A program made the position numbers and the translations under genes. A stretch of 46,298 nt of DNA from an uncultured Dehalococcoidia bacterium (GTDB lineage: Bacteria; Chloroflexota; Dehalococcoidia; Lucifugimonadales; CAZGRI01): positions 1 through 46,298 of the forward strand of contig CAZGRI010000003.1 of the NCBI GenBank assembly GCA_964528205.1, written 5' to 3'. Below are positions 33,045-46,298 of this stretch, piece after piece (the stretch's first letter is position 1; every line of letters starts with the position of its first letter). Below the pieces are notes generated by a model. It did no database searches. It was not told the origin of the DNA and saw only the letters and a program-made list of their open reading frames with translations.

Positions 33045-33635
33045 CTACTCCAGAATCGGGTACCTCCGAACAAGGGGTGTTTCCGCCCACAGCTTACCAA
33101 GACCCAGGGTGTAGCCCGCCTTGGCCAGCGGCAAGCCCGCGAAGATCAGCATGTACAGGATGTGCTCGTCCATGAACGGGTTGTGCTCCGGCGGCATGAA
33201 GCCCGCTGCGTACATCATTGCCGACATCGCGATCCCCGAGATCGAGGCGATGACAACCCCGATGCCCAGAACGAGCGCCAGGCCTATCGCCAGCAGTCCC
33301 ACCATGAAGAGCCAGTCAACTGCGGCGTTGCCCGCCATCGCCTTGAAGCCCTCGGCGAACGGTCCCTTCGCACCGAAGTTCAGGAAGCCGAACGTTGGGG
33401 AGCCGCCGTTGATCCACGCGCCGTCCGACGCCGTTGCATAGCCCAAACCAAAGACCTTGTCGAAGAAGGCCCACAGGAAGATCCACCCTACCCCCATTCT
33501 GAGCAGCCCCCAGACGTAGCGAGCCCTATCTTCCGCCATCAAAACGACGTTGACCTTCCCTTCCGGCATGGGTTCCGGACGCTCGACTCCCAGGCTCGAT
33601 ACCCGACCCCCTGTCCTCTCCGCAATCGTTGCCAT
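33045..33635 (-). CDS. DoxX family membrane protein
   Basis: 196 aa with four hydrophobic segments (LLRMGVGWIFLWAFFDK ... LFMVGLLAIGLALVLG...). Its stop codon abuts the acs stop with zero spacing. Confidence 0.65.
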   Translation of the reverse strand: MATIAERTGGRVSSLGVERPEPMPEGKVNVVLMAEDRARYVWGLLRMGVGWIFLWAFFDKVFGLGYATASDGAWINGGSPTFGFLNFGAKGPFAEGFKAMAGNAAVDWLFMVGLLAIGLALVLGIGVVIASISGIAMSAMMYAAGFMPPEHNPFMDEHILYMLIFAGLPLAKAGYTLGLGKLWAETPLVRRYPILE

Positions 33636-33717: not shown

Positions 33718-33783
33718 ACTATATTTCACAAAGTGTGAAGATGACATGAGAAAAGGCGCAACTTCATGAGGTTCTCATGAAGT
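33718..33783 (-). promoter_or_regulatory. AT-rich control region upstream of doxX: perfect 10-bp-arm palindrome, degenerate copy of the regulon box, TATAGT -10
   Basis: Palindrome acttcatgag-gtt-ctcatgaagt at 33761-33783. On the minus strand, CTCATGTCATCTTCACA runs 33750-33734, then 10 nt, then TATAGT at 33723-33718. A second palindrome, ttcaca-aag-tgtgaa, is at 33725-33739. Confidence 0.4.
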
Positions 33784-34789: not shown

Positions 34790-35383
34790 CTACGATTCTA
34801 GACCGGCGCCGCGCTCCACGGCGGCCGTGGCCCGTGGGGGGAGCTTGAGCTCGCCGCTCTCCTCGTCTCCAATGCCTGAGAGGCCGATCCCGACCCCAAG
34901 GGCGACCGCGACCGCGGCTACCGCCACCCACCATCTCAAGACGGAGACGCGGCCGCCTGCGACCGTCAGGACCGCGATCAGCGGAAAGGCGATAGCGGCC
35001 AACGGCAAGGTATACGAGACGACACGGTCGAGCTGGGTCTCGCCCAGAAAGGCCGCCACGGCCGTGAGCCCGAATCCCCCTGTCCAGAGCACGGCGAAGG
35101 CGATGTGGCGGTTTCGGTTTCCGGCAAGGACGCGCCACAGCACACCGGCCACCAGACCGGCGAACAGCGCGCCGGCGGTTACCGTCGCGCTGTTGAACAG
35201 GATGTCGTCAGGCGACCGAAGGGGTAGTGAGACCAGGGACTCGATCACCGCGGCCACCGAACCCGCCACGAGGCCTGCCACGACGGGGCTCTCCGTCGAT
35301 CCGCGACCGCTCTCAGCCCCTGTCTTCACGGGCTCACGACTCAACTCCCTCAACTCCAGGGGACCGCCGTGGGCAGCCCTCAC
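34790..35383 (-). CDS. Hypothetical integral membrane protein
   Basis: 197 aa with about five hydrophobic helices. Its GTG start overlaps the stop of the upstream gene (GTGA), which suggests translational coupling. Confidence 0.5.
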   Translation of the reverse strand: MRAAHGGPLELRELSREPVKTGAESGRGSTESPVVAGLVAGSVAAVIESLVSLPLRSPDDILFNSATVTAGALFAGLVAGVLWRVLAGNRNRHIAFAVLWTGGFGLTAVAAFLGETQLDRVVSYTLPLAAIAFPLIAVLTVAGGRVSVLRWWVAVAAVAVALGVGIGLSGIGDEESGELKLPPRATAAVERGAGLES

Positions 35384-36027
35384 TGTTGACCAGGTCTCCC
35401 CTCTCCACCGCCGCCAAATCCGCCGCCGCCGAAGCCGCCTCGTAACCCGCCGCCGAAGCCCTGAGCACCCTCAGGCACCACGAAGACCGTCGACGCCGCC
35501 AGCGTGCCGTCCTCCGCTCGCTCGCCGGTAACGGTCAGGCGCATCCCCTCGGTCAGGTCTCCGACCTCCGCCAGGGCGGTGATCTGTATCCTGGTGTCGG
35601 GGCCAACAGTTGCCTGGAGCGGCCCTTGCTGGGTCGTGATGGTCACGGTGCCGTCCTCGATCTTCTCGATGATTCCGGTGACACCCGATCCGCCGCCGAA
35701 TCCCAGGCCTCCGGGGGCTTGTCCCGCTCCGCCCTGCCCGAACTGGTCCTGCAGCTGCTGACGCAGCTCCGTCAGTTCCTCCTGGCTGGCCTCGCCGGAC
35801 TGGACCCTCTGCCGGAGGTCGGCCAGCGTCTGTAGTCCGCTCCCCTGCGTCGGCTGGCTCTGGACCTGGGACTGGACGCCCGTCGGTTGCACCACCTGGG
35901 CGATGCTCTGGGTGTCATCGTCGCCCTGGCTCTTGCCCAGCGCAACACCCCCGAAAAAGGAGCCGCCCAGCACTCCACCCAGGACCAGTGCGCCCGCGAG
36001 CATCAGAATGAAGCCTTTGTTGCTCAT
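35380..36027 (-). CDS. Membrane-anchored or secreted DUF5666-like protein with glycine-rich tails
   Basis: 215 aa. N-terminal TM/signal (GFILMLAGALVLGGVLGG), a Gln-rich linker, then a beta-rich core (GIIEKIEDGTVTITTQQGPLQATVGPDTRIQI...GMRLTVTGERAEDGTLAASTVFVV). The C-terminus is GGLRGGFGGGGFGGGGEGRPGQQ. AGGAGG RBS. Confidence 0.6.
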   Translation of the reverse strand: MSNKGFILMLAGALVLGGVLGGSFFGGVALGKSQGDDDTQSIAQVVQPTGVQSQVQSQPTQGSGLQTLADLRQRVQSGEASQEELTELRQQLQDQFGQGGAGQAPGGLGFGGGSGVTGIIEKIEDGTVTITTQQGPLQATVGPDTRIQITALAEVGDLTEGMRLTVTGERAEDGTLAASTVFVVPEGAQGFGGGLRGGFGGGGFGGGGEGRPGQQ

Positions 36028-36060: not shown

Positions 36061-37272
36061 CTACTCGTAGCGCAGCGCCTCTATCGGGTGGAGGTTGGCC
36101 GCCCGAACCGCCGGGTATATGCCGAAGAAGAGACCGATGGCCGCCGAGACTATCAGCGCGAGGACGGTGATGTCGCTCCCGGCCGCCGTCTGGAACGTCT
36201 GACCTCCGAGGTTACGGCCGTCCAGGAGCCGCGAAAGCGTTATGCCCAGGACCGCTCCCGCCCCGCCACCACCCAGGCTCAGCAGAGTCGCCTCCGAGAT
36301 GAACTGGTACAGAATATCCCGCCGCTTCGCGCCCATGGCCTTGCGGATGCCGATCTCTCGTGTGCGCTCTGTGACCGACACCAGCATGATGTTCATGATC
36401 CCGATGCCCCCGACCAGCAGCGATATCCCGGCGATGGCGCCCAGGAAGATCACGAACGTCTCCTGGGTCTCCTCCAGGGTGTCGATGATCTCCTGCTGGC
36501 TGGTTATCGAGAAGTCGTCCTCGCCAGTGATTCGATGGCGGAGCCGCAGAGCGGCGGCGATCTGCTGGAGGGCATCCTCCTTGGCGTCTTCGTCGGCGAC
36601 CTGGACGTTAACGGTCTGAACCGTTACGCCGCCCTGCGTCGTGCGGGTTGAGGCGAGCCGGTAGTAGACCGTGGTTATGGGAACAAGAAGCTGGTTGTCC
36701 AGGTTCCCCAGGGCGCTCCCGCCCTTGCTCTCCAGCACACCGACGACCGTGAACTGGCGGCCGTTGATCCGGACGGTCTGGCCCACGGGGTCACGGAAGC
36801 CGAACAGGTCCTCAGCCGCCTGTGAACCCAGCACCGCGACCTCCGAGATCCCTTGCACGTGCGCCGCGGAGATGAACTGTCCGGTCGCGACCTCGTGGTT
36901 CCGCACCGTCTGGTACTCGGGGGTCACGCCGACTATCTGGGTGGCTGTGCTGTTTCTGCCGGCCACGACCTGGCCTGCGGTGTTCAGCTCGGGCGCCACC
37001 GCCGTCACGGCGGGCGCGACGCCCGGCTCCACCAGGGCATAGGCGTCTTCCAGCGTAAGACTCTGTGCGCCGCCGGTCGGCCGCACGAACAGCAGGTTGG
37101 AGCCCAGGGACTGGATCCTCGACGTTATGGCCTCCTGGGCCCCGCGTCCCACCGACATCGTCGATATCACCGCGGCAACGCCGATCACGATGCCCAGGAG
37201 GGCCAGCCCCGTCCTTAGCTTGTTGCCGGCCAGGGAGGACAACGCGGTGGAGAAGATGGTCAGAGGGCTCAT
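36061..37272 (-). CDS. ABC transporter permease, MacB/FtsX type
   Basis: 403 aa. N-terminal TM helix, a roughly 220-aa extracytoplasmic MacB_PCD-like domain, and a C-terminal FtsX 3-TM bundle (GGIGIMNIMLVSVTERTREIGIRKAMGA). Confidence 0.9.
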   Translation of the reverse strand: MSPLTIFSTALSSLAGNKLRTGLALLGIVIGVAAVISTMSVGRGAQEAITSRIQSLGSNLLFVRPTGGAQSLTLEDAYALVEPGVAPAVTAVAPELNTAGQVVAGRNSTATQIVGVTPEYQTVRNHEVATGQFISAAHVQGISEVAVLGSQAAEDLFGFRDPVGQTVRINGRQFTVVGVLESKGGSALGNLDNQLLVPITTVYYRLASTRTTQGGVTVQTVNVQVADEDAKEDALQQIAAALRLRHRITGEDDFSITSQQEIIDTLEETQETFVIFLGAIAGISLLVGGIGIMNIMLVSVTERTREIGIRKAMGAKRRDILYQFISEATLLSLGGGGAGAVLGITLSRLLDGRNLGGQTFQTAAGSDITVLALIVSAAIGLFFGIYPAVRAANLHPIEALRYE

Positions 37273-38022: not shown

Positions 38023-40347
38023 CTATCGACCACCGACGCTGGTGGGACGGCCTCCGCCGAAGCCACCGCCGCCGAATCCGCCACCGGGACGGAAGCCTCC
38101 CCCGAAGCCGAAACCGGTGGTACTGGCCTGCTCCGCCTGCATCACAAGCTGCTCGCCCTCGGCAAGCCCACCTTGGACCACTGCCCAGAAGTCATCGCTG
38201 TTGCCCAGCACCACCGGTCGTTCTTCGATCACACCCGCGCTGATGACGCGCACCAGCGGCTGATCGAAGGTGCCGTAGAGGGCCTGTAGCGGCACCAGCA
38301 AGACGTCCCGGTCCTCGCGGATGACGACACCCGCGACGGCGCTCAGTCCCTCGGGAAGCGTGATCCCCGCCGGCACCTGCACTTGAATCCGAATCGGGTA
38401 GCTGACCACGCCCTGCTGGCTCCTGGCGGCTGAGCCAACATCGGAAACGACGCCTTCCAGCACCTGCCCCGCCAGGGCGTCCATCGTCACCGTTGCCGAT
38501 GCTCCCACCCGCACGTACAGCACGTCTATCTCATCCACTATCCCATCGACCTCGACAACAGTTGGATCGACCACCTCGAGGACCGGCGTGTTGGGATTGA
38601 TGAGACTGCCCGCCTCGACGTTGATCAGCGACACGACGCCGTCCATCGGGGCCGTAAGGATCGCGTTAGCCATGTCCGTCTCGGCATCGCTCAGAGCAAC
38701 CAGCGAAGATGCTACCTCGGTCTCCCGAAGCGCTATCTCCAGCGGGTCCGGGCTGTTCCTGATCTCATCGAGATCTTCTTCGGCCTGCGTCAGGATGGCC
38801 TGCGCGACCGTTACCTGCTGTTGTTTCGCTTCCAGCTCCATGGGATCGGCGCCGGCGACTAGCTCGCCAAGGTCCTCCTCGGCCTTCGCGAGATCGGCCT
38901 CCGCGAGGTCCACCTGCCGCTGCTTGCTGTCAGCTTCGAGCGTGTCCGGTCCGCCTAGTAGCTCAGCGATCTCTTGCTCTGCCACGTCCAGGTTGACAAG
39001 CAACAGCGCAAGCTGCTTCTCCTTGGCCTCTGTCTCCAGAGCGCCGGCCGCCTCGTAGAGGTCGGTCAGGTCCTGCCGTTCGGCGCTCAGAGCGTCCTCG
39101 GCACGTGCCACCGCGATAGTGGCGCTGTCGACGGCCTTGGCCTGCTGAGTCCTCGTGGAGGCCAGGTCGGAGATCGCCTTGCTGTGGGCGTCCCAGGCAG
39201 TCGACAGCTCCTGGGAGACGCAGGCCCCTTGATGCGGGACCGCACCGTTCGCGCAGTCGGCGGCGATGGCGCCCGGATAGAAGTTCAGCCAGGTATATAT
39301 CACTGACTCGTCCCACTGAGTGGCCGGATCGTCGACGGCGATGCCCTGGACGGCCACCCACGGCGCCAGGTCATAGTACCGAGAGTTCGGGTCGAACAGC
39401 GACGCCAGGTCCACGCCCCATGACGCCAGAAGGGCATCCGGGTCCAGAGCTTCATCCGTCTCACTCAGGTCGACCCCAAGCCATCTCTCGAAGGCCTCCC
39501 TGTACCCGTCTCGGGCAGCATCGGCGGCATCCTGCTTCGTCTGCACGTTGTCGTTCCATGTGTCGGTGGCGAGCGCCAGGTCCCGTTGAGCGTTTGCCAG
39601 CGTGGTGGCGGCGGAGTCGATCTGCAACTGTGCGGTGTCGACATCCTCGTCGCTGGGCCCGCTCCTGAGAGAGTCCAGCGCGGCCGTTGCATTGTCGACC
39701 GCCAGCCGGGCGTCCGTGACCGCGGACTCGGCCCTGGCTACCTCCTGTGCGGTAGGGTTCAGGAGCCCGTCGACGGCGTCCCGAGCGGTCTGGAGCGCCA
39801 ACGCGGAGCCGGCGAACAACGCTTCGGCCTGTGCGATCTGCTGCGACGTTGGCTGCAGCTTCTCCACCGCGTCCTCGGCGTTCCTCAGAGACAGCCATGC
39901 ACTGGACACGTCGGCCTCGGTCTGTGCCAGCTCGAGGGCGGTATGGGGGTCTCTGGCCTTCACCAGGGCCTCGTTGGTCTTGTCCAGATTGACCTGAGCC
40001 TGGGCGACGGCCTTCGCCAGCGACGCCACGGTTGCTGCATCGAGTGTCACAAGGTTCTGGCCCTGGACCACGGACTGCCCCTCGTCCACCAGCACCTCTC
40101 CGATGGCGCCCTGGACGCCGAAGGTCAGCGTCTCTCGGTTGGGGTAGACGAGGCTACCGTTTGTGGAAACCTCGTTCACGAGGTCGCCGGACCGAACGAC
40201 GATGAGCTGCTGGTCTTCCTCGAGGTCGGCGCTATCGGTGCCGGTCGTCAGGGCGTAGGCTCCGTAGGAGGCGCCGACGGCCCCGAAGACGACCGCAACC
40301 AGGACGCCGATCTGCCAGGCCCTCAGGCTCCTTATCGCGTCTAGCAT
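38023..40347 (-). CDS. HlyD/MacA-family periplasmic adaptor (membrane fusion protein), unusually long at 774 aa
   Basis: N-terminal TM helix, a lipoyl-like half (VSTNGSLVYPN...GEVLVDEGQSVVQGQNLVTLD), and about 460 aa of helical repeats with a roughly 100-aa insert. These are followed by the second lipoyl half (ILTAPMDGVVSLINVEAGSLI), beta-barrel and MP domains, and a C-terminal GFGFGGGFRPGGGFGGGGFGGGRP tail. Confidence 0.85.
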   Translation of the reverse strand: MLDAIRSLRAWQIGVLVAVVFGAVGASYGAYALTTGTDSADLEEDQQLIVVRSGDLVNEVSTNGSLVYPNRETLTFGVQGAIGEVLVDEGQSVVQGQNLVTLDAATVASLAKAVAQAQVNLDKTNEALVKARDPHTALELAQTEADVSSAWLSLRNAEDAVEKLQPTSQQIAQAEALFAGSALALQTARDAVDGLLNPTAQEVARAESAVTDARLAVDNATAALDSLRSGPSDEDVDTAQLQIDSAATTLANAQRDLALATDTWNDNVQTKQDAADAARDGYREAFERWLGVDLSETDEALDPDALLASWGVDLASLFDPNSRYYDLAPWVAVQGIAVDDPATQWDESVIYTWLNFYPGAIAADCANGAVPHQGACVSQELSTAWDAHSKAISDLASTRTQQAKAVDSATIAVARAEDALSAERQDLTDLYEAAGALETEAKEKQLALLLVNLDVAEQEIAELLGGPDTLEADSKQRQVDLAEADLAKAEEDLGELVAGADPMELEAKQQQVTVAQAILTQAEEDLDEIRNSPDPLEIALRETEVASSLVALSDAETDMANAILTAPMDGVVSLINVEAGSLINPNTPVLEVVDPTVVEVDGIVDEIDVLYVRVGASATVTMDALAGQVLEGVVSDVGSAARSQQGVVSYPIRIQVQVPAGITLPEGLSAVAGVVIREDRDVLLVPLQALYGTFDQPLVRVISAGVIEERPVVLGNSDDFWAVVQGGLAEGEQLVMQAEQASTTGFGFGGGFRPGGGFGGGGFGGGRPTSVGGR

Positions 40348-40460
40348 CTTTCTCTGCCCCCTTCAGTGGCCCTTGGCGCAAGACCGGTGCCGTTAGTCCG
40401 GCTGCTGTCGACAGGTGTGTCATCTAGAGTTTGGAGTCTTGACGGACTCGCGGTATTCAC

Positions 40461-40504
40461 GTTGTAGCAGGAGAATGTTGAGAAAGTATGAAGTGTCTAT
40501 GAAG
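40461..40504 (-). promoter_or_regulatory. Regulon box D: three phased half-sites plus a -10-like hexamer upstream of the adaptor/ABC operon
   Basis: Minus strand reads CTTCATA-gaca-CTTCATA-cttt-CTCAACA (40504-40476), then 9 nt, then TACAAC (40466-40461). It sits between the kinase stop (40532) and the adaptor start (40347). Confidence 0.55.
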
Positions 40505-40531
40505 GACAGTGTCTGATTTCGGGTGAGTGGC

Positions 40532-41896
40532 CTAGTCGGTGCGGGCGTGCATCGGCAGGGTGAATACGAAGAGGCTGCCCTTGCCCTGCGTGCTCTCGAC
40601 GCTGATGGTCCCTCCATGCGCCTCAACGAGCTGCTTGGCGATGGTCAAGCCCAGGCCGGCTCCGCCGGTTGTGCGTGCTCGAGAAGGATCGGCCCGGTAG
40701 AATCTCTCGAAGACGTATGGCAGCACCTCGGCTGGTATGCCCTCTCCCGTGTCGGCCACCGTGACGCTCACATCGGGACCAGCGGTCCGCGTCGACACGG
40801 TGACGCTCCCGCCCGAAGGGGTGTGCCGTATGGCGTTGTCCAGAAGATTGCCGACCACCTGTGTTATCCGAGTCCTGTCGATCTCAGCTACGGGTAGACG
40901 ATCGTCGCCATCCAGGCCAACCGATACGCCTCCGGCGTCGGCCCGTGGTCGGAACGCCTCCACCGACGCCGCGACGAGGTCGTTGACGGAGTACGGCTGT
41001 CGGTCCAGCCGAAGGTCGGGTGACTCGGCCTCGGCCAGCGCCCTCAGGTCCTCGACCAGGTGGGCGAGGTTCAGGCCCTGCTTGTGTATCGTCTCGATAG
41101 TCGCCGCATCCGCGGGCAGGACTCCATCGCGCACGGCCTCCACATAACCCTGTATGTTCGACAGGGGTGTCCTGAGCTCGTGGGCCACGTCCGCGACCAT
41201 GTTGCGCCGTTGACGCTCTGAGTTCTCCAGGCCGTCGGCCATTACATTGAACGTGCGTCCCAACTCGCTGATCTCGTCCCGGCCCCTGGCCGGTACCCTC
41301 TGGGAGAGGTCTCCGCGACCCAGACGGTCCGCGGCAGAGTTCAGTGTTCTGACCGAGGAGAGCACACGGCGCGACATCAAGGAGATCAGAAGGATCCCTC
41401 CCGCGCCCGTGGCAAGCCCGGCCCATAGTAGCGATCGGTTTGTCTGTTCGGCGAATCTGGTCAGCGGGGGCTCCGGTAGCTCATCCGGCACATCGCTGGC
41501 CGTCACGATGACGAACGCGACCTGACGCCCTCTGCTCATGACCGGGTAGGGCACCCCTTCGCGGCCGCGCCTGATGGGAGGCGGCCTTACCCCGATGCCT
41601 GTGTCACCGACCACCCGCCCGGTGCTGTCGGTGACGACGATGCGCCGGCTGTAGAGTGAGCCGGCCCTCTCGACGACCTGCTGCAGTCCCGTCCACTCGC
41701 CCCGGGCGTCGTAGAACTGTGCCACCATTCGGTGGACGCGTTCCTTTCGCACCTCCTCGAAGTCCCGCTGGATCCGCGCGACCTCTTGTCGGGCCTGGTA
41801 CCCGATATACCAGCTGACGGCACCCAGTGCCAGGGCGAGGACCAGCGCGAAGCCAACCATGAGCCGGAATTGGAGGCTGAAGAACCACCTAGGCAT
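40532..41896 (-). CDS. Sensor histidine kinase (two TM helices, HAMP, HisKA, HATPase_c)
   Basis: The ATG at 41896 (MPRWFFSLQF) overlaps the regulator stop within ATGCCTAG. H-box ADVAHELRTPLS, N-box LLDNAIRHTP, G-boxes DTGEGI and GGAGLGLTI. The track start at 42013 lies inside the regulator gene and is rejected. Confidence 0.9.
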   Translation of the reverse strand: MPRWFFSLQFRLMVGFALVLALALGAVSWYIGYQARQEVARIQRDFEEVRKERVHRMVAQFYDARGEWTGLQQVVERAGSLYSRRIVVTDSTGRVVGDTGIGVRPPPIRRGREGVPYPVMSRGRQVAFVIVTASDVPDELPEPPLTRFAEQTNRSLLWAGLATGAGGILLISLMSRRVLSSVRTLNSAADRLGRGDLSQRVPARGRDEISELGRTFNVMADGLENSERQRRNMVADVAHELRTPLSNIQGYVEAVRDGVLPADAATIETIHKQGLNLAHLVEDLRALAEAESPDLRLDRQPYSVNDLVAASVEAFRPRADAGGVSVGLDGDDRLPVAEIDRTRITQVVGNLLDNAIRHTPSGGSVTVSTRTAGPDVSVTVADTGEGIPAEVLPYVFERFYRADPSRARTTGGAGLGLTIAKQLVEAHGGTISVESTQGKGSLFVFTLPMHARTD

Positions 41897-42578
41897 CGCC
41901 GAACCTGTACCCCACGCCGTAGATAGTGTGAACGTAGCGGTCGTCCTCGCCCTCTGCCTCCAGCTTCCGCCGCAGGTTCGCCACATGGGCGTCGACCGTC
42001 CGGTCGAAGCCATCGAAGTCGAACCCGAACACGCGGTCGATGATCTGCTCGCGCGTGAAGGTCCTGCCCGGCTCCCTGATCATCATGGCCAGGAGGCGGA
42101 ACTCAGTTGGGGTCAGCCGGACCTTGGCGGCCCCTACGTGGACGTCCCGCAGGCGAAGATCGACCTTAATGTCTCCGTAGTCCAGCTCCTTCGGTCCGCG
42201 CTCCATGGCCTCCCGGGCGGTCCGTCTGAGCACAGCGCGTACGCGGGCGGCGAGCTCCTTGGGGCTGAAGGGCTTGGTCACGTAGTCATCGGCCCCCAGG
42301 TCCAGGCCCACCAGCCGGTCTTGCTCCTCAACCCGCGCGGTAAGCATAACGATGGCGACGTCCGACTCCTCTCTCAGCGCTCTGCACACGTCCAGTCCAT
42401 TCATGCTCGGAAGCATCAAGTCGAGGACGACCAGGTCGGGCCTCGCCTCGCGGGCCAGCTTCAGCCCTTCGAGCCCGTCCGTGGCGGTCAGGACCTTGTG
42501 GCCGTCACGCTGAAGGTACAGGCCCACCAGCTTGACCGTATCCGAATCGTCCTCGACTATCAGAACTTTGCTAGACAT
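41889..42578 (-). CDS. OmpR/PhoB-family response regulator
   Basis: 229 aa. Receiver domain (VLIVEDD...DLVVLDLMLP...KP) and a winged-helix output domain (LTPTEFRLLAMMIREPGRTFTREQIIDRVFG...VDAHVANLRRKLE...IHTIYGVGYRF). Confidence 0.93.
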   Translation of the reverse strand: MSSKVLIVEDDSDTVKLVGLYLQRDGHKVLTATDGLEGLKLAREARPDLVVLDLMLPSMNGLDVCRALREESDVAIVMLTARVEEQDRLVGLDLGADDYVTKPFSPKELAARVRAVLRRTAREAMERGPKELDYGDIKVDLRLRDVHVGAAKVRLTPTEFRLLAMMIREPGRTFTREQIIDRVFGFDFDGFDRTVDAHVANLRRKLEAEGEDDRYVHTIYGVGYRFGDA

Positions 42579-42614
42579 TCCTCTCGAACCCCAAGGTGGG
42601 CTATCAGGCGGTCC

Positions 42615-43982
42615 CTAAGCGGCGCCTCGGTCGGGCCTGGGTTGGAGAGTCAGCTCGACGGTCGTGGGCTCACCGTCTCGCAGGAGCTCGACTGTCAGTT
42701 TGTCCCCGGGCCTGTTGTTCTCCGACAGGTACGAAATCAGATCGTTCATCCCCTCGATTGGAGTCCCGTCCAACCTTATTATTACATCTCCGCCCACGGG
42801 ATACTCAACGCCTTCAAGCCTGGTGGTCCCCATGGCGGCTACCAGGCCGGCGTCATCTGCGGGACCACCATTGGCTATCCCGACAATCAGCGTCCCCCGG
42901 GTATCTGGAGTAAGCCCGTTGGCCTGCGCCAGTTTTCCGTTCAACGACGCCCCGCTGATGCCGAGATAGGCGTGCTGGTACTCGCCGTCGGCCACCAGCT
43001 CGGGCACTATCCTCTTGGCAGTGTTGATGGGAATGGCGAACCCTACTCCGGCGCTCACGCCGCTGCTGCTTATGATCTGGGCGTTGATGCCGATGACGTC
43101 GCCGAGCCGGTCCAACAGCGGCCCGCCGGAGTTGCCAGGGTTGATAGGGGTGTCGGTCTGGATGATCTGGGAGTTGGAGTAGCCGTTGGCTCCCGGCACG
43201 GCGCGCCCTAGGGCGCTGACGATGCCGCGCGACATGGTGAACTCCTGGCCGAACGGGTTGCCTATCGCCAGGCTAAGCTGGCCCACCCTGAGCTCGGCGC
43301 TATCCCCAAGCTCCAGGGCCTGGAGGGCCAGTTCCGAAGTATCGATCTTCAGGACCGCCAGATCGGAGTCGGCGTCGCTGCCCAGCACTTCGGCCTCGAA
43401 CTCGGAGCCGTCGGCGAAGACGACCGTGACCCGGTCCGCCTCGGCGATCACGTGATGGTTGGTGACGATATGTCCTTCGCCGCTCCATACGAAGCCGGAC
43501 CCCTCGCCGGCAGGGGCAAACCCCTCACCGCGAGACGGACCGCCGAAGCGTCCCTGCGACGCCGGGACATTCCTCTCCACTCTGATGTAAACGACCGAGG
43601 GCAATGCCGACTCGTAGATGTCGCCCAGCACCTCCTCGTAAGCCGCCACGATATCGTTCGAGGTAAGCGAGTCCAGCGCGGCCTCAACCGACTCGACCTC
43701 AGAGTCCGTGGGCACGACGACCGCTGCGGAGTCCTCGGCTACCGGGGCAACCTGGATCTCTGTGATCGCCTCGATGGGGCTCGCCTCTACGCGAGTGAGA
43801 TCGGCTACCTCCGGTACGGCGATCGGGGAGGAGACGACCTCTACGATGGCGGGCGCCGACTCCAAAACGTTCGTGTTTGAAGGCTCGTCCGACAGAGAAG
43901 CGACCGTCGCTCCTCCGCACGCTACGAGCGCTACCGAGGCGATTGCCCCAAGGGCCACAGCTACGCGTCTGATTCTCAACAT
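42615..43982 (-). CDS. HtrA/DegP-family (S1C) serine protease with PDZ domain; predicted lipoprotein
   Basis: 455 aa. Lipobox ALVACGG. Catalytic triad context HIVTNHHVI, DSDLAVLKI, NPGNSGGPLLD. C-terminal PDZ. AGGAGGGGAGG RBS. Confidence 0.9.
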   Translation of the reverse strand: MLRIRRVAVALGAIASVALVACGGATVASLSDEPSNTNVLESAPAIVEVVSSPIAVPEVADLTRVEASPIEAITEIQVAPVAEDSAAVVVPTDSEVESVEAALDSLTSNDIVAAYEEVLGDIYESALPSVVYIRVERNVPASQGRFGGPSRGEGFAPAGEGSGFVWSGEGHIVTNHHVIAEADRVTVVFADGSEFEAEVLGSDADSDLAVLKIDTSELALQALELGDSAELRVGQLSLAIGNPFGQEFTMSRGIVSALGRAVPGANGYSNSQIIQTDTPINPGNSGGPLLDRLGDVIGINAQIISSSGVSAGVGFAIPINTAKRIVPELVADGEYQHAYLGISGASLNGKLAQANGLTPDTRGTLIVGIANGGPADDAGLVAAMGTTRLEGVEYPVGGDVIIRLDGTPIEGMNDLISYLSENNRPGDKLTVELLRDGEPTTVELTLQPRPDRGAA

Positions 43983-44013
43983 CTTCCTCCCCTCCTGATC
44001 GGAACTTCCTAAA

Positions 44014-44057
44014 AGCCTAACCCGGAACTGTTAAGGAATTATGAAGGCCGTATTAAG
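44014..44057 (-). promoter_or_regulatory. Regulon box A: three phased half-sites plus a -10-like hexamer upstream of htrA-RR-HK
   Basis: Minus strand reads CTTAATA-cggc-CTTCATA-attc-CTTAACA (44057-44029), then 9 nt, then TAGGCT (44019-44014). The hexamer is 32 nt upstream of the htrA ATG. Confidence 0.55.
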
Positions 44058-44174
44058 CTACATCTGCACAAGTTTCGGGCTGCGTGCGTCGGCGCCGGGA
44101 CAAAAGAGTGCCCCGGCCAATGGGCCGGGGCACTCTCAGGAGGCTGGGCCCGATAATGGGCCCGGAAGACGGCC

Positions 44175-44636
44175 CTAGAGTGAGGTAGTGTCGGGGGCCT
44201 GAGGAGCGGCCGGAGGCGCCTGGAATCCCCGCCACGGGAATCCACGACCGTGGAAACCCTTGCCGTGGGTCCGGGGCCCACCGCGGAAACCGTGTCCTCC
44301 GAAGCCGGGCACGCCGAAACCGTGGGTAAGGCCCTCGGGCATCGCGTTCATCCAGTCTTCGAGATCGTCACGCTGCTCCGGTGTGATCCGGCCGCTCTCC
44401 TCTAGGGCGTCCAGCCTGGCCTGGATCTTCTCTGCCCTCATCTCGGCGACGGCCTGGTCGAAGGCGTCCTGGACCTGCGACTCCTCCAGTCCCAGGATCG
44501 AAGCGACCCGTGAGATCATGCCTTTCACGGGGGAGTCCCCATTGGGGTCGGCAGTCTGTGCCAGTACCGCGCCACCGCTGATCCCCAGGGCCACCACCGC
44601 CGTCAGGACCGAAACTATTACCCAACGTCTCTTCAT
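44175..44636 (-). CDS. Secreted helical protein resembling DUF2680/YckD and CpxP/Spy-type envelope proteins, with a Gly/Phe/His-rich tail
   Basis: The ATG at 44636 (MKRRWVIVSVLTAVVALGISGGAVLAQ) is preceded by AGAGGAGGG. The helical core carries an LTxxQ-like motif (RITPEQRDDLEDWM). The tail is HGFGVPGFGGHGFRGGPRTHGKGFHGRGFPWRGF. Confidence 0.55.
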   Translation of the reverse strand: MKRRWVIVSVLTAVVALGISGGAVLAQTADPNGDSPVKGMISRVASILGLEESQVQDAFDQAVAEMRAEKIQARLDALEESGRITPEQRDDLEDWMNAMPEGLTHGFGVPGFGGHGFRGGPRTHGKGFHGRGFPWRGFQAPPAAPQAPDTTSL

Positions 44637-44682
44637 TGTCACACCCTCCTCTTTGTTGGTCCGGCTAGTCCGTTCGTTTAAC

Positions 44683-44715
44683 ACGATAGCGAAAGAGTGT
44701 TAAGGAAGTTTGAAG
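44683..44715 (-). promoter_or_regulatory. Regulon box B plus a -10-like hexamer upstream of the DUF2680/CpxP-like gene
   Basis: Minus strand reads CTTCAAA-cttc-CTTAACA (44715-44698), then 9 nt, then TATCGT (44688-44683). Confidence 0.55.
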
Positions 44716-44726
44716 AACTCGCCCGG

Positions 44727-44921
44727 CTACACCGCGGACCGCGAGACCGACCTCCGTGGCCGCATGACCATTCCCTGCAGGCAGGAGGACGACAGCGCCG
44801 CCTTTTCCGTCTCCGTCAGGCAGTACCCGCAGTGAAGACAGGTCAGGTACGCGCCGTATATGTCCTGGTTGTCGGCCACGTCGCCGTCTATGCAACGAGG
44901 GCAGCATTTGAGCCAGAGCAT
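44727..44921 (-). CDS. Small zinc-ribbon protein (64 aa)
   Basis: The ATG at 44921 (MLWLKCCPRCIDGDVADNQDIYGAYLTCLHCGYCLTE...) is preceded by GGAGGG. The CPRC-x17-CLHCGY arrangement is a classic 4-Cys ribbon. Confidence 0.5.
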   Translation of the reverse strand: MLWLKCCPRCIDGDVADNQDIYGAYLTCLHCGYCLTETEKAALSSSCLQGMVMRPRRSVSRSAV

Positions 44922-45000
44922 TTTCGCACCCTCCGTGCCTCGCCCGCCCAGGTCCCTTGGAATGGGCCGGCCGTCCAAATTCGACTGTTTCCATAGACGG

Positions 45001-45033
45001 ATGTTAGCGAACGACTGTTAAGGAAATATGAAG
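45001..45033 (-). promoter_or_regulatory. Regulon box C plus a -10-like hexamer upstream of the zinc-ribbon gene
   Basis: Minus strand reads CTTCATA-tttc-CTTAACA (45033-45016), then 9 nt, then TAACAT (45006-45001). Confidence 0.55.
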
Positions 45034-45182
45034 CCCTCAGGAAAGCGGCTTCAAACTGGGTCTGTCACTGCTCTTCGCCTCCCCGACACCGTTGACCCAG
45101 AGACGCTCCTCTCATAGACTTACCCCACCGACAGTTGAGTCACACGCAATCCGTCCACTGTCTATCCAAAAAAGGAGCTGAA

Positions 45183-46239
45183 ATGCCGAACGTCGCCGCC
45201 AGAGACCTTCACGCCCTGGTCAAGGATATCCTCGTGGCAGCCGGCGCCAGCGAGACGAACGCTGAACGGATGGGAGAGGCGCTGGTCTCGTCCAACATGG
45301 CCGGCGTCGACACCCACGGGGTCGTCCCCCTGGCGCTCTACGTCTCCCAGATAAAGAGCGGCGAGCTTGTACCGACGGCATCGCCCGAGATCGTCAAGGA
45401 AACGGCCAACTCGGCGCTGGTGAGGGGCAACTGGACCTTCGGCCACGTGGTCGCCGAGTACACAATGAGGCTGGCCATCGACAAGGCCCGAGACCACGAT
45501 ATCGGAATCGCCAGCATGATGGAGTCGGGCCACATCGGCCGGCTCGGCGAATACGCCGAAATGGCCATTGCGGAGGGAATGATCGGATTGGTGCTGGCGG
45601 GCGGATACGGCGCGGAGGTCCCCACCGCGGTCCCGTTTGGCGGCCGGGAGGCTGCCCTGCACACCAACCCTGTATCCATGGGCTTTCCCGCTGGTGACGA
45701 GACGCCGATGTTCTTCGACTTCGCTACCACGACCATCGCGGGCACAAAAGCTAACCTGGCCAAAAACCGCGGCGAGCAGGTGCCGCCGGGCAGCATGATC
45801 GACGACGAGGGCAACTTGACTACGGACGCGTCCGGCTGGCCCGATAGGCGTGCCCTCACGGCCTTCGGGCAGCACAAGGGCTACGCGATCATGCTGGCCA
45901 ACGAGGTGATGGGCAGGATACTCTCCGACGCCGACTCCTACGCCGACACGGAAAAGGGAGGCGTCACCATGCGGCACCAGGGCGTGACGATGATCGCCAT
46001 CAAGGCCGACCTGTTCCAGCCGATGGCCCGTTTCGGAGGCCGGGTCGACGACCTGGAGCGTAAGATGCGGGCCCGTGCCGCCGGCCAAAGGGTTTCAGGA
46101 GGTGCTGGTGCCCGGCGACCTGGAGGCGAAGGCCAGAGAGTCCAGGAGCAGGGACGGCGTCCCCGTCATGGACGACATCTGGGCGTCGCTGACCGGGCTG
46201 GCCGAGGAGTTCGGGGTGGCCTTGCCGAGCGTATCCTAA
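45183..46239 (+). pseudogene. Ldh2-family (malate/L-lactate/ureidoglycolate) dehydrogenase with an apparent +1 frameshift at a C-run near 46072
   Basis: Translation from the ATG at 45183 is typical of the family (MPNVAARDLHALVKDILVAAGASETNAERMGEALVSSNMAGVDTHGV...HKGYAIMLANEV...). After ...DDLERKMRA the frame becomes Arg/Gly junk with no stop in the window. The +1 frame reads VPPAKGFQEVLVPGDLEAKARESRSRDGVPVMDDIWASLTGLAEEFGVALPSVS*, which is the expected family C-terminus. The listed minus ORF 45162..46088 is a shadow. Confidence 0.8.
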
Positions 46240-46245
46240 ATCGAC

Positions 46246-46298
46246 GGGCCGGTAGCTCAGTCTGGTCAGAGCATCGGACTTTTAATCCGAGTGTCCAG
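46246..46298 (+). tRNA. tRNA-Lys (anticodon TTT), truncated by the window end
   Basis: Acceptor gggccgg, D arm gctcagtctggtcagagc, anticodon stem-loop tcgga-ctTTTaa-tccga. The T arm is cut off. Confidence 0.85.

Follow-up and report, generated by a model that had tools for sequence, protein, structure and literature searches.

The window analysed here is a 46,298-bp stretch from an uncultured Chloroflexota (Dehalococcoidia) bacterium, whose part from 40000 to 46298 was read on the minus strand. The window carries a sensor-regulator pair, formed by an OmpR/PhoB-family response regulator (41889-42578) and a sensor histidine kinase, together with genes for a small zinc-ribbon protein, a secreted DUF2680-like protein, an HtrA-family protease and an HlyD-ABC-FtsX efflux system. 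Four copies of an 18-bp box, named A to D, lie in front of these units, and we propose that they are probably the operator sites of the adjacent regulator. The boxes and the promoter elements around them are listed below.

45016..45033, minus strand: box C, CTTCATATTTCCTTAACA, 5' of the zinc-ribbon open reading frame (ORF)
45001..45006, minus strand: TAACAT, proposed -10 of promoter C, 9 nt past box C
44698..44715, minus strand: box B, CTTCAAACTTCCTTAACA, 5' of the DUF2680-like gene
44683..44688, minus strand: TATCGT, proposed -10 of promoter B, TA and final T invariant in alignment A4 (see below)
44051..44057, minus strand: CTTAATA, third in-phase repeat, 11 bp 5' of box A
44029..44046, minus strand: box A, CTTCATAATTCCTTAACA, 5' of the htrA-regulator-kinase genes
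44014..44019, minus strand: TAGGCT, proposed -10 of promoter A, 9 nt past box A
40498..40504, minus strand: CTTCATA, third in-phase repeat, 5' of box D
40476..40493, minus strand: box D, CTTCATACTTTCTCAACA, 38 nt past the kinase stop codon, 5' of the efflux operon
40461..40466, minus strand: TACAAC, proposed -10 of promoter D, TAAAAC in the orthologue

Direct reading of the minus strand found all four 18-mers where an initial annotation of the window had placed them, with 14 of the 18 positions invariant, as it had counted, and with positions 6, 8, 11 and 14 variable. The consensus CTTCAWAnTTyCTyAACA resolves into two 7-bp direct repeats, CTTCAWA and CTYAACA, separated by 4 nt and thus showing an 11-bp period, and the further in-phase repeats described for boxes A and D are both present. 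When both strands of the window were searched with CTTCAWANTTYCTYAACA, allowing at most three mismatches, only boxes A-D matched, against a chance expectation of 0.06, and none of 100 shuffles reached four matches; the box pattern followed by a 9-nt gap and TA likewise gave four matches against 0.00 expected. All the boxes are intergenic, and each faces a minus-strand gene that lies downstream and has a Shine-Dalgarno sequence. The same annotation had assigned every gene here to the minus strand, which does not hold for the gene upstream of box C, since this gene runs on the plus strand from 45183.

The spacing between each box and a TA-hexamer is exactly 9 nt at the four sites, as had been claimed, and no TTGACA-like -35 lies 16-18 nt 5' of any of the four proposed -10s; at site C, for instance, direct reading gave a 1/6 match to a -35 at each of these spacings. 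A promoter scan called no sigma-70 pair at any of boxes A-D, and it called a canonical TTGACC-17-TAGACT promoter (45092-45120) for the divergent plus-strand gene. We also considered that the TTAACA within the box could itself be a -35 at the normal 17-nt spacing. The hexamers found there (GTCTAT, TAAACG, TAGGAA and GAATAC) are inconsistent with a -10, and this reading was rejected because the 9-nt gap is the conserved one. The Pho-box geometry invoked at the outset is present, with a 7+4+7 box about 10 bp 5' of the -10 and no -35. More generally, direct repeats in tandem, spaced by about one turn of the helix as in OmpR/PhoB-family operators, were found both in the window and at orthologous loci. 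Known RNA elements were not found in the 5' leaders by Rfam at E <= 0.1, the sole match being a partial tRNA at the window end.

The genes behind the boxes are the following.

44727..44921, minus strand: small zinc-ribbon ORF, 64 aa, CPRC...CLHC, with a G+C content at third codon positions (GC3) of 0.85, like its neighbours
44175..44636, minus strand: secreted 153-aa protein (DUF2680-like), with signal peptide, three-helix core and Gly/His/Arg/Phe-rich disordered tail
44104..44137, minus strand: intrinsic terminator of the DUF2680-like unit, a hairpin with a 15-bp stem followed by UUUUG
42615..43982, minus strand: HtrA/DegP-family serine protease (Trypsin_2 and PDZ)
41889..42578, minus strand: OmpR/PhoB-family response regulator (Response_reg and Trans_reg_C), presumed binder of the boxes
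40532..41896, minus strand: sensor histidine kinase, with transmembrane segment, outer domain of about 120 aa, transmembrane segment, HAMP, HisKA and HATPase
38023..40347, minus strand: HlyD-family membrane-fusion/adaptor protein, 774 aa
37269..38084, minus strand: ABC transporter ATPase
36061..37272, minus strand: MacB-type permease (MacB_PCD and FtsX)
35380..36027, minus strand: 215-aa protein, probably the last gene of the efflux operon, kept after FtsX in the orthologous loci L113 and L031

Both domains of the regulator were matched (Response_reg 2.4e-30, Trans_reg_C 5.2e-27), and full-length matches were obtained to the structures of MtrA, RegX3, BaeR and PhoP; no other OmpR-type regulator was detected in the window. 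The kinase start overlaps the stop codon of the regulator gene. The terminator hairpin has a predicted energy of -33.1 kcal/mol (z = -5.9) and an equivalent in L121, the closest relative.

In order to see how far the boxes accompany this system, we compared it with related genomes. Full-length relatives of the kinase at 40-54% identity were found only in Chloroflexota, in Dehalococcoidia and Anaerolineae metagenome-assembled genomes (MAGs). In local tblastn, homologues of the 153-aa protein and HlyD-ABC-FtsX operons were repeatedly linked to the regulator-kinase pair, whose regulator was 55-74% identical; HtrA was linked to the pair less often than these other partners and in fewer genomes. 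The first comparative matrix scan covered 30 orthologous loci amounting to 352 kb, on both strands. Derived from the four window sites alone, as the initial annotation had suggested, the matrix gave 26 hits of at least 16 bits, whereas 30 column-shuffled matrices gave a mean of 1.3 hits and a maximum of 4 on the same loci. With the refined matrix, 33 of the 37 non-window sites stood directly 5' of, and co-oriented with, one of three kinds of gene (regulator operon 21, DUF2680-like 8, HlyD-like 4), so that counterparts of box A occupy the regulator-operon promoters in 21 orthologous loci. The gap to [TC]AnnnT was exactly 9 nt in 27 of these 37 sites, 8 nt in four and 10 nt in two, and the -10-like TAnnnT hexamer often has TG before it. 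The conservation of the box at orthologous loci, proposed beforehand as a test, thus extends across Dehalococcoidia and Anaerolineae, together with the gap of about 9 nt and TAnnnT. As a control, regulators at least 55% identical usually had the box 5' of their own operon, and the box was absent 5' of regulator-kinase pairs whose regulator was less than 50% identical (Bacillota, Desulfobacterota and distant Chloroflexota), most of which belong to other phyla.

An exact-pattern scan with CTTCAWANTTYCTTAACA-N9-TA, run on one genome each of 185,579 species (GTDB), found 94 stretches, 33 of them from Chloroflexota. The 34 exact sites in Chloroflexota include 27 that precede the gene kinds of the window (DUF2680-like 21, regulator 2, HlyD-like/ABC 4); three of the 21 DUF2680-like genes are multi-repeat forms, and an exact box of type B precedes 18 orthologues of the DUF2680-like gene. 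Altogether the box was found with the sensor-regulator pair in more than 40 genomes. In L121, whose regulator is 74% identical, the order is DUF2680-like gene, terminator, regulator-kinase and HlyD-ABC-FtsX, and a box lies before each of the three units.

Alignments of the promoter regions place the conservation on the boxes themselves. In alignment A4, which covers the region 5' of the DUF2680-like gene in nine genomes, invariance is essentially limited to five features, namely the box of 18 bp, TA and the last T of the -10 (gap 9), one base of the ribosome-binding site and the area around the start codon; box B is invariant there bar one C/T position. Box D keeps its orthologous position in L121 and L113, and in the alignment of these two with the window (A3) it forms a conserved island with the -10 region; the third in-phase repeat of box D was looked for in the same two relatives and is not kept in either. 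Boxes of the D type also occur in L010, L013, L020 and L011. For the upstream end of the cluster (alignment A1) we could use four short ENA metagenome contigs (L175-L178) carrying the zinc-ribbon ORF. All four keep box B, its gap and its -10, and box C with its gap and -10 forms conserved islands in the two marine metagenome contigs that reach it, while the flanks diverge in both cases; the divergent canonical promoter is a separate conserved island.

What the sequence establishes is the motif, its non-random placement, the constancy of its spacing, and that across Chloroflexota it is conserved along with the orthologous pair and the targets. On this basis the boxes are almost certainly functional cis-elements. 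That the adjacent regulator is the protein that binds them is likely, and that its effect is activation is the more probable course, although held with somewhat less assurance; for envelope or secreted-protein stress as the signal the chances are about even. Phylogenetic footprinting supports the claim that the adjacent regulator has its operators in these boxes and that they mark a candidate regulon including its own operon.

Thus, we propose that the membrane kinase (40532-41896) would sense an extracytoplasmic perturbation through its outer domain of about 120 aa and would then phosphorylate the regulator. A regulator dimer would bind head-to-tail on the two 7-bp direct repeats with their 11-bp periodicity, and the box, at about -39 to -22, would stand in for the missing -35. 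Since the box ends 9 nt before TAnnnT and replaces the -35, the bound regulator may recruit RNA polymerase carrying the housekeeping sigma-70, in a class II activation as with PhoB and CiaR; it is this geometry, shared with class II activators of the OmpR/PhoB family, that leads us to favour the kinase-regulator-polymerase model. The zinc-ribbon protein, the DUF2680-like protein, htrA with the regulator and the kinase, and the HlyD-ABC-FtsX (MacAB-like) exporter would be co-induced, and the regulator-kinase operon would be positively autoregulated.

Several observations weigh against this proposal. The recognition helix is too ordinary to link the regulator to the motif: we tried it (RT[VI]D[AV]H[VI].N[LI]RRK) as a discriminator and dropped it, as it is family-typical and does not separate regulators that have the box from those that lack it. 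Of the 34 Chloroflexota exact sites, seven precede other genes (MsrQ-like 3, cytochrome b561-like 1, unassigned or no ORF 3), and the -10 of promoter D, TACAAC, is weak. The same 18-mer also stands before PstS-like genes in Planctomycetota and Deltaproteobacteria, so that a PhoB-type protein encoded elsewhere could recognise the box. Finally, a box over the -35 position is compatible with repression too.

This last point leads to the best surviving alternative, in which the adjacent regulator binds the boxes as a repressor occluding the -35 region and the units are de-repressed on its dephosphorylation. Many regulators do repress from the position of the box (about -39 to -22), and in Streptomyces CutR represses htrB from -17 (PMC12802291). 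The promoters of the window, on the other hand, have no recognisable -35 and should therefore be weak without an activator, and the strict 9-nt spacing in 27 of 37 sites is a signature of contact between activator and polymerase, as for PhoB and CiaR. Sensor-regulator operons that are autoregulated through such a box are, moreover, usually positively autoregulated. We thus consider repression unlikely.

Less probable still, and in our view quite improbable, is that the sites are true Pho boxes bound by a PhoB orthologue encoded outside the window, which would put these genes in a phosphate-starvation regulon. The box has the geometry of the Escherichia coli Pho box, the PhoB model is the best NCBIfam match of the regulator, and the identical 18-mer with gap and TA lies before PstS-like (PBP_like_2) genes at L087 3802 (-), L110 3085 (+), L116 6517 (+) and L126 1512-1540 (+), in Pirellula, a deltaproteobacterial MAG, Planctomycetales and Bythopirellula, with a third in-phase repeat at the L087 site. 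These sites seem to be true Pho boxes of the phyla concerned, with the same sequence, and because of them the term "Pho-box-like" is apt at the DNA level. The proteins argue otherwise: the regulator reaches 235.7 bits against a PhoB cut-off of 296.2 (TIGR02154) and 175.7 against the 471 of PRK10161, while the kinase reaches 199.1 bits against a PhoR cut-off of 334.2 (TIGR02966) and has no cytoplasmic PAS domain (HAMP-HisKA-HATPase only in Pfam). So do the targets, among which there is a protease, an exporter and a secreted protein and no phosphate-acquisition gene. A PstS-like gene occurs at three of the five Planctomycetota matches (L087, L116 and L126), unlike in Chloroflexota, where there is one in none of the 33 exact-pattern loci nor in the orthologous sensor-regulator loci, and the box travels with this sensor-regulator pair in the more than 40 genomes mentioned above. 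The remaining alternative, that the 18-mer is a promoter element of an alternative sigma factor such as an extracytoplasmic function (ECF) sigma, hardly merits belief, for even though envelope-stress regulons with htrA are often ECF-sigma dependent and the element keeps a fixed distance to a conserved downstream hexamer, its internal direct repeat with 11-bp periodicity and sometimes a third in-phase copy resembles OmpR-family sites and not a -35, the downstream TAnnnT, often preceded by TG, is housekeeping-like, the 9-nt gap is unfit for ECF -35/-10 spacing, and the gene that always accompanies the system is not one for a sigma or anti-sigma factor, none of which is linked, but the sensor-regulator pair.

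In three Dehalococcoidia MAGs the box CTTCAAAATTTCTTAACA is followed by a gap of 9 nt, TATGTT and a gene for an MsrQ-like membrane protein with a Ferric_reduct domain (L135 5474 (-), L148 5852 (+) and L152 4840 (-)), which suggests that the regulon of some lineages may include a repair function for extracytoplasmic proteins damaged by oxidation. Outside Chloroflexota, exact boxes were seen at L142 2880 (+), L166 2341 (-), L174 563 (-) and L149 2272 (-). They precede HtrA in Tissierellia and Eubacteriales MAGs, HlyD-ABC-FtsX in a MAG of Clostridia and, in an 'Actinomycetota' MAG, a pair of regulator (45% identical) and kinase (41% identical), and these boxes may represent related systems in other phyla, transfers or mis-binned contigs.

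The zinc-ribbon ORF behind box C gave no Pfam or NCBIfam match and has no homologue in the set of 174 genome loci; in the protein database there are only four clusters, at 87-92% identity, which correspond to the four contigs L175-L178, two of them with names in the style of a marine catalogue. GC3 and conservation suggest that it is a real gene. As its homologues are confined to very close relatives it cannot be called a conserved regulon member, and it seems to have joined the regulon in this lineage only.

For the protein behind box B the DUF2680 label stands for the homologues and not for the window protein itself, which has no DUF2680 (PF10925) match at E <= 0.01. Against the Pfam gathering threshold of 25 bits, the homologues in L097 and L091 score above (31.9 and 26.6) and those in L103 and L128 below (17.7 and 17.1), and two database homologues carry a precomputed PF10925 annotation. 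The proposed CpxP-like character, by contrast, found no backing, with no Pfam LTXXQ match and no Foldseek match, and we dropped CpxP/Spy kinship, the best Foldseek result against PDB having only E = 0.7. An AlphaFold2 model from a 28-sequence alignment has a mean predicted local distance difference test score (pLDDT) of 60.2, with 74-88 in the three-helix core. The family alignment (A2) shows a conserved core of about 65 aa and three helices, SRVAxILGL...GRITxEQADE...W..RP[DE], in which the ITxEQ module is doubled in some members; the ITxEQ-like motifs of the window protein were seen by eye only. The tails are highly variable, being Gly/His/Arg/Phe-rich, as in the window (44175-44330, minus strand), or, in L097, Asp/His-rich, and hint at metal or client binding. 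A broader and rather doubtful possibility is that box and sensor-regulator pair form a phylum-wide extracytoplasmic-stress response of Chloroflexota, with the DUF2680-family protein as its most conserved target, acting as a CpxP-, Spy- or ZraP-like chaperone and as feedback partner of the kinase. If true, a circuit like Cpx or Bae would have arisen convergently in bacteria whose envelope is atypical, and DUF2680 would gain its first functional context.

The boxes introduce no new principle; judged from their sequence and context, they seem to be real but conventional regulator-binding sites of an uncharacterised member of the well-known OmpR/PhoB-type arrangement. Their value lies in providing a testable regulon and an operator consensus for an uncharacterised sensor-regulator pair conserved in uncultured Dehalococcoidia and Anaerolineae, among them marine and other environmental lineages without genetic tools. 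One probable stress response would join an HtrA protease, a MacAB-like exporter, a DUF2680-family protein and, in some relatives, an MsrQ-like protein. This would be the first regulatory context for DUF2680, which we found in the literature only in unrelated contexts, and the motif can be used for promoter annotation in Chloroflexota MAGs.

Three further features of the window were recorded. The divergent gene (45183-46245, plus strand) reads well for about 290 residues and then passes into an Arg/Gly-rich, apparently out-of-frame tail that runs into a tRNA without a stop codon, so that the frame has probably shifted near 46050-46080, in a pseudogene or through an error of assembly. The tRNA is represented by the 5' part of its gene (46246-46298, plus strand; Rfam tRNA, 35.5 bits), cut by the window end, and ARAGORN misses it because of this truncation. 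On the minus strand at 33725-33783, a 196-aa gene starting near 33634 has two palindromes 5' of it, one at 33783-33761 (ACTTCATGAG-aac-CTCATGAAGT) and one at 33739-33725 (TTCACA-ctt-TGTGAA). The latter has the fifth-best matrix score (12.2 bits) only because it has one half-site in common with the box; together they look like the operator of another, dimeric regulator.

A close parallel in architecture is PhoB with its Pho box in E. coli, an 18-bp site of 7+4+7 bp with 11-bp periodicity, about 10 bp 5' of the -10 and replacing the -35. The proteins are alike in combining a receiver domain with a winged helix, and the sensor-regulator operon is autoregulated in E. coli and, as judged from promoter position, probably here too. 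The repeats of the window are nevertheless CTTCAWA and CTYAACA and not CTGTCAT, and unlike PhoB/PhoR the proteins fall below the equivalog cut-offs, the kinase lacks PAS and there is no pst linkage in Chloroflexota. The half-sites of Bacillus subtilis PhoP and WalR are TTAACA-type repeats and TGTWAH-N5-TGTWAH, respectively. The downstream window repeat contains TTAACA, and the reverse complement of the box, TGTTAA-N5-TATGAA, presumably resembles the WalR consensus closely and has its 11-bp period; however, phylum and targets are different, and here the orientation of the box to the promoter is fixed.

CiaRH of Streptococcus offers a second parallel. The CiaR box is NTTAAG-N5-TTTAAG with its last base 10 bp 5' of the -10, and htrA is a direct CiaR target (PMC3091779); CiaRH is also reported to regulate the efflux pump SatAB (PMC9241815). 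In a similar manner the window has CTTCAT-N5-CTTAAC ending 10 nt before TAnnnT, with the core TTAA in common, and htrA and an efflux system stand behind its boxes. The final G of the CiaR repeat is reported as essential (PMC3091779), whereas the last base of the hexamer is T or C in all four window sites. The recognition helix is TVDAHVANLRRKL in the window regulator and VVEVYVSKVRKKL in CiaR (quoted in PMC3091779), and, unlike CiaRH, the present system belongs to a Chloroflexota host and box-dependent small RNAs are not evident. The Streptomyces CutR motif, TAWATAAA (PMC12802291), was also considered and is unrelated to the box.

We found no literature description of such a Chloroflexi or Dehalococcoides system or motif. 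Regulator and kinase lie below every NCBIfam equivalog cut-off tried, including that of MtrA, even though BaeS is the best NCBIfam match of the kinase and BaeR is among the top matches of the regulator. The difference from Cpx and Bae can be read from the scores (BaeR 215.8 bits against a cut-off of 380, CpxR 161.9 against 341, BaeS 244.6 against 500), and unlike in Cpx the secreted protein has no detectable CpxP/Spy/LTXXQ kinship in Pfam or Foldseek. In organisation, the system is like CpxRA and BaeSR of E. coli, CssRS of Bacillus and Streptomyces and CutRS of Streptomyces, envelope or secretion stress systems controlling HtrA/DegP, in joining an OmpR-family regulator to a kinase with an extracytoplasmic sensor domain and in its linkage to an HtrA-family protease. 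An HtrA/DegP protease and an efflux system would both fall within the regulon by promoter position (boxes A and D), and on the same grounds an exporter and a small secreted helical protein would be among its targets, as in Bae and Cpx.

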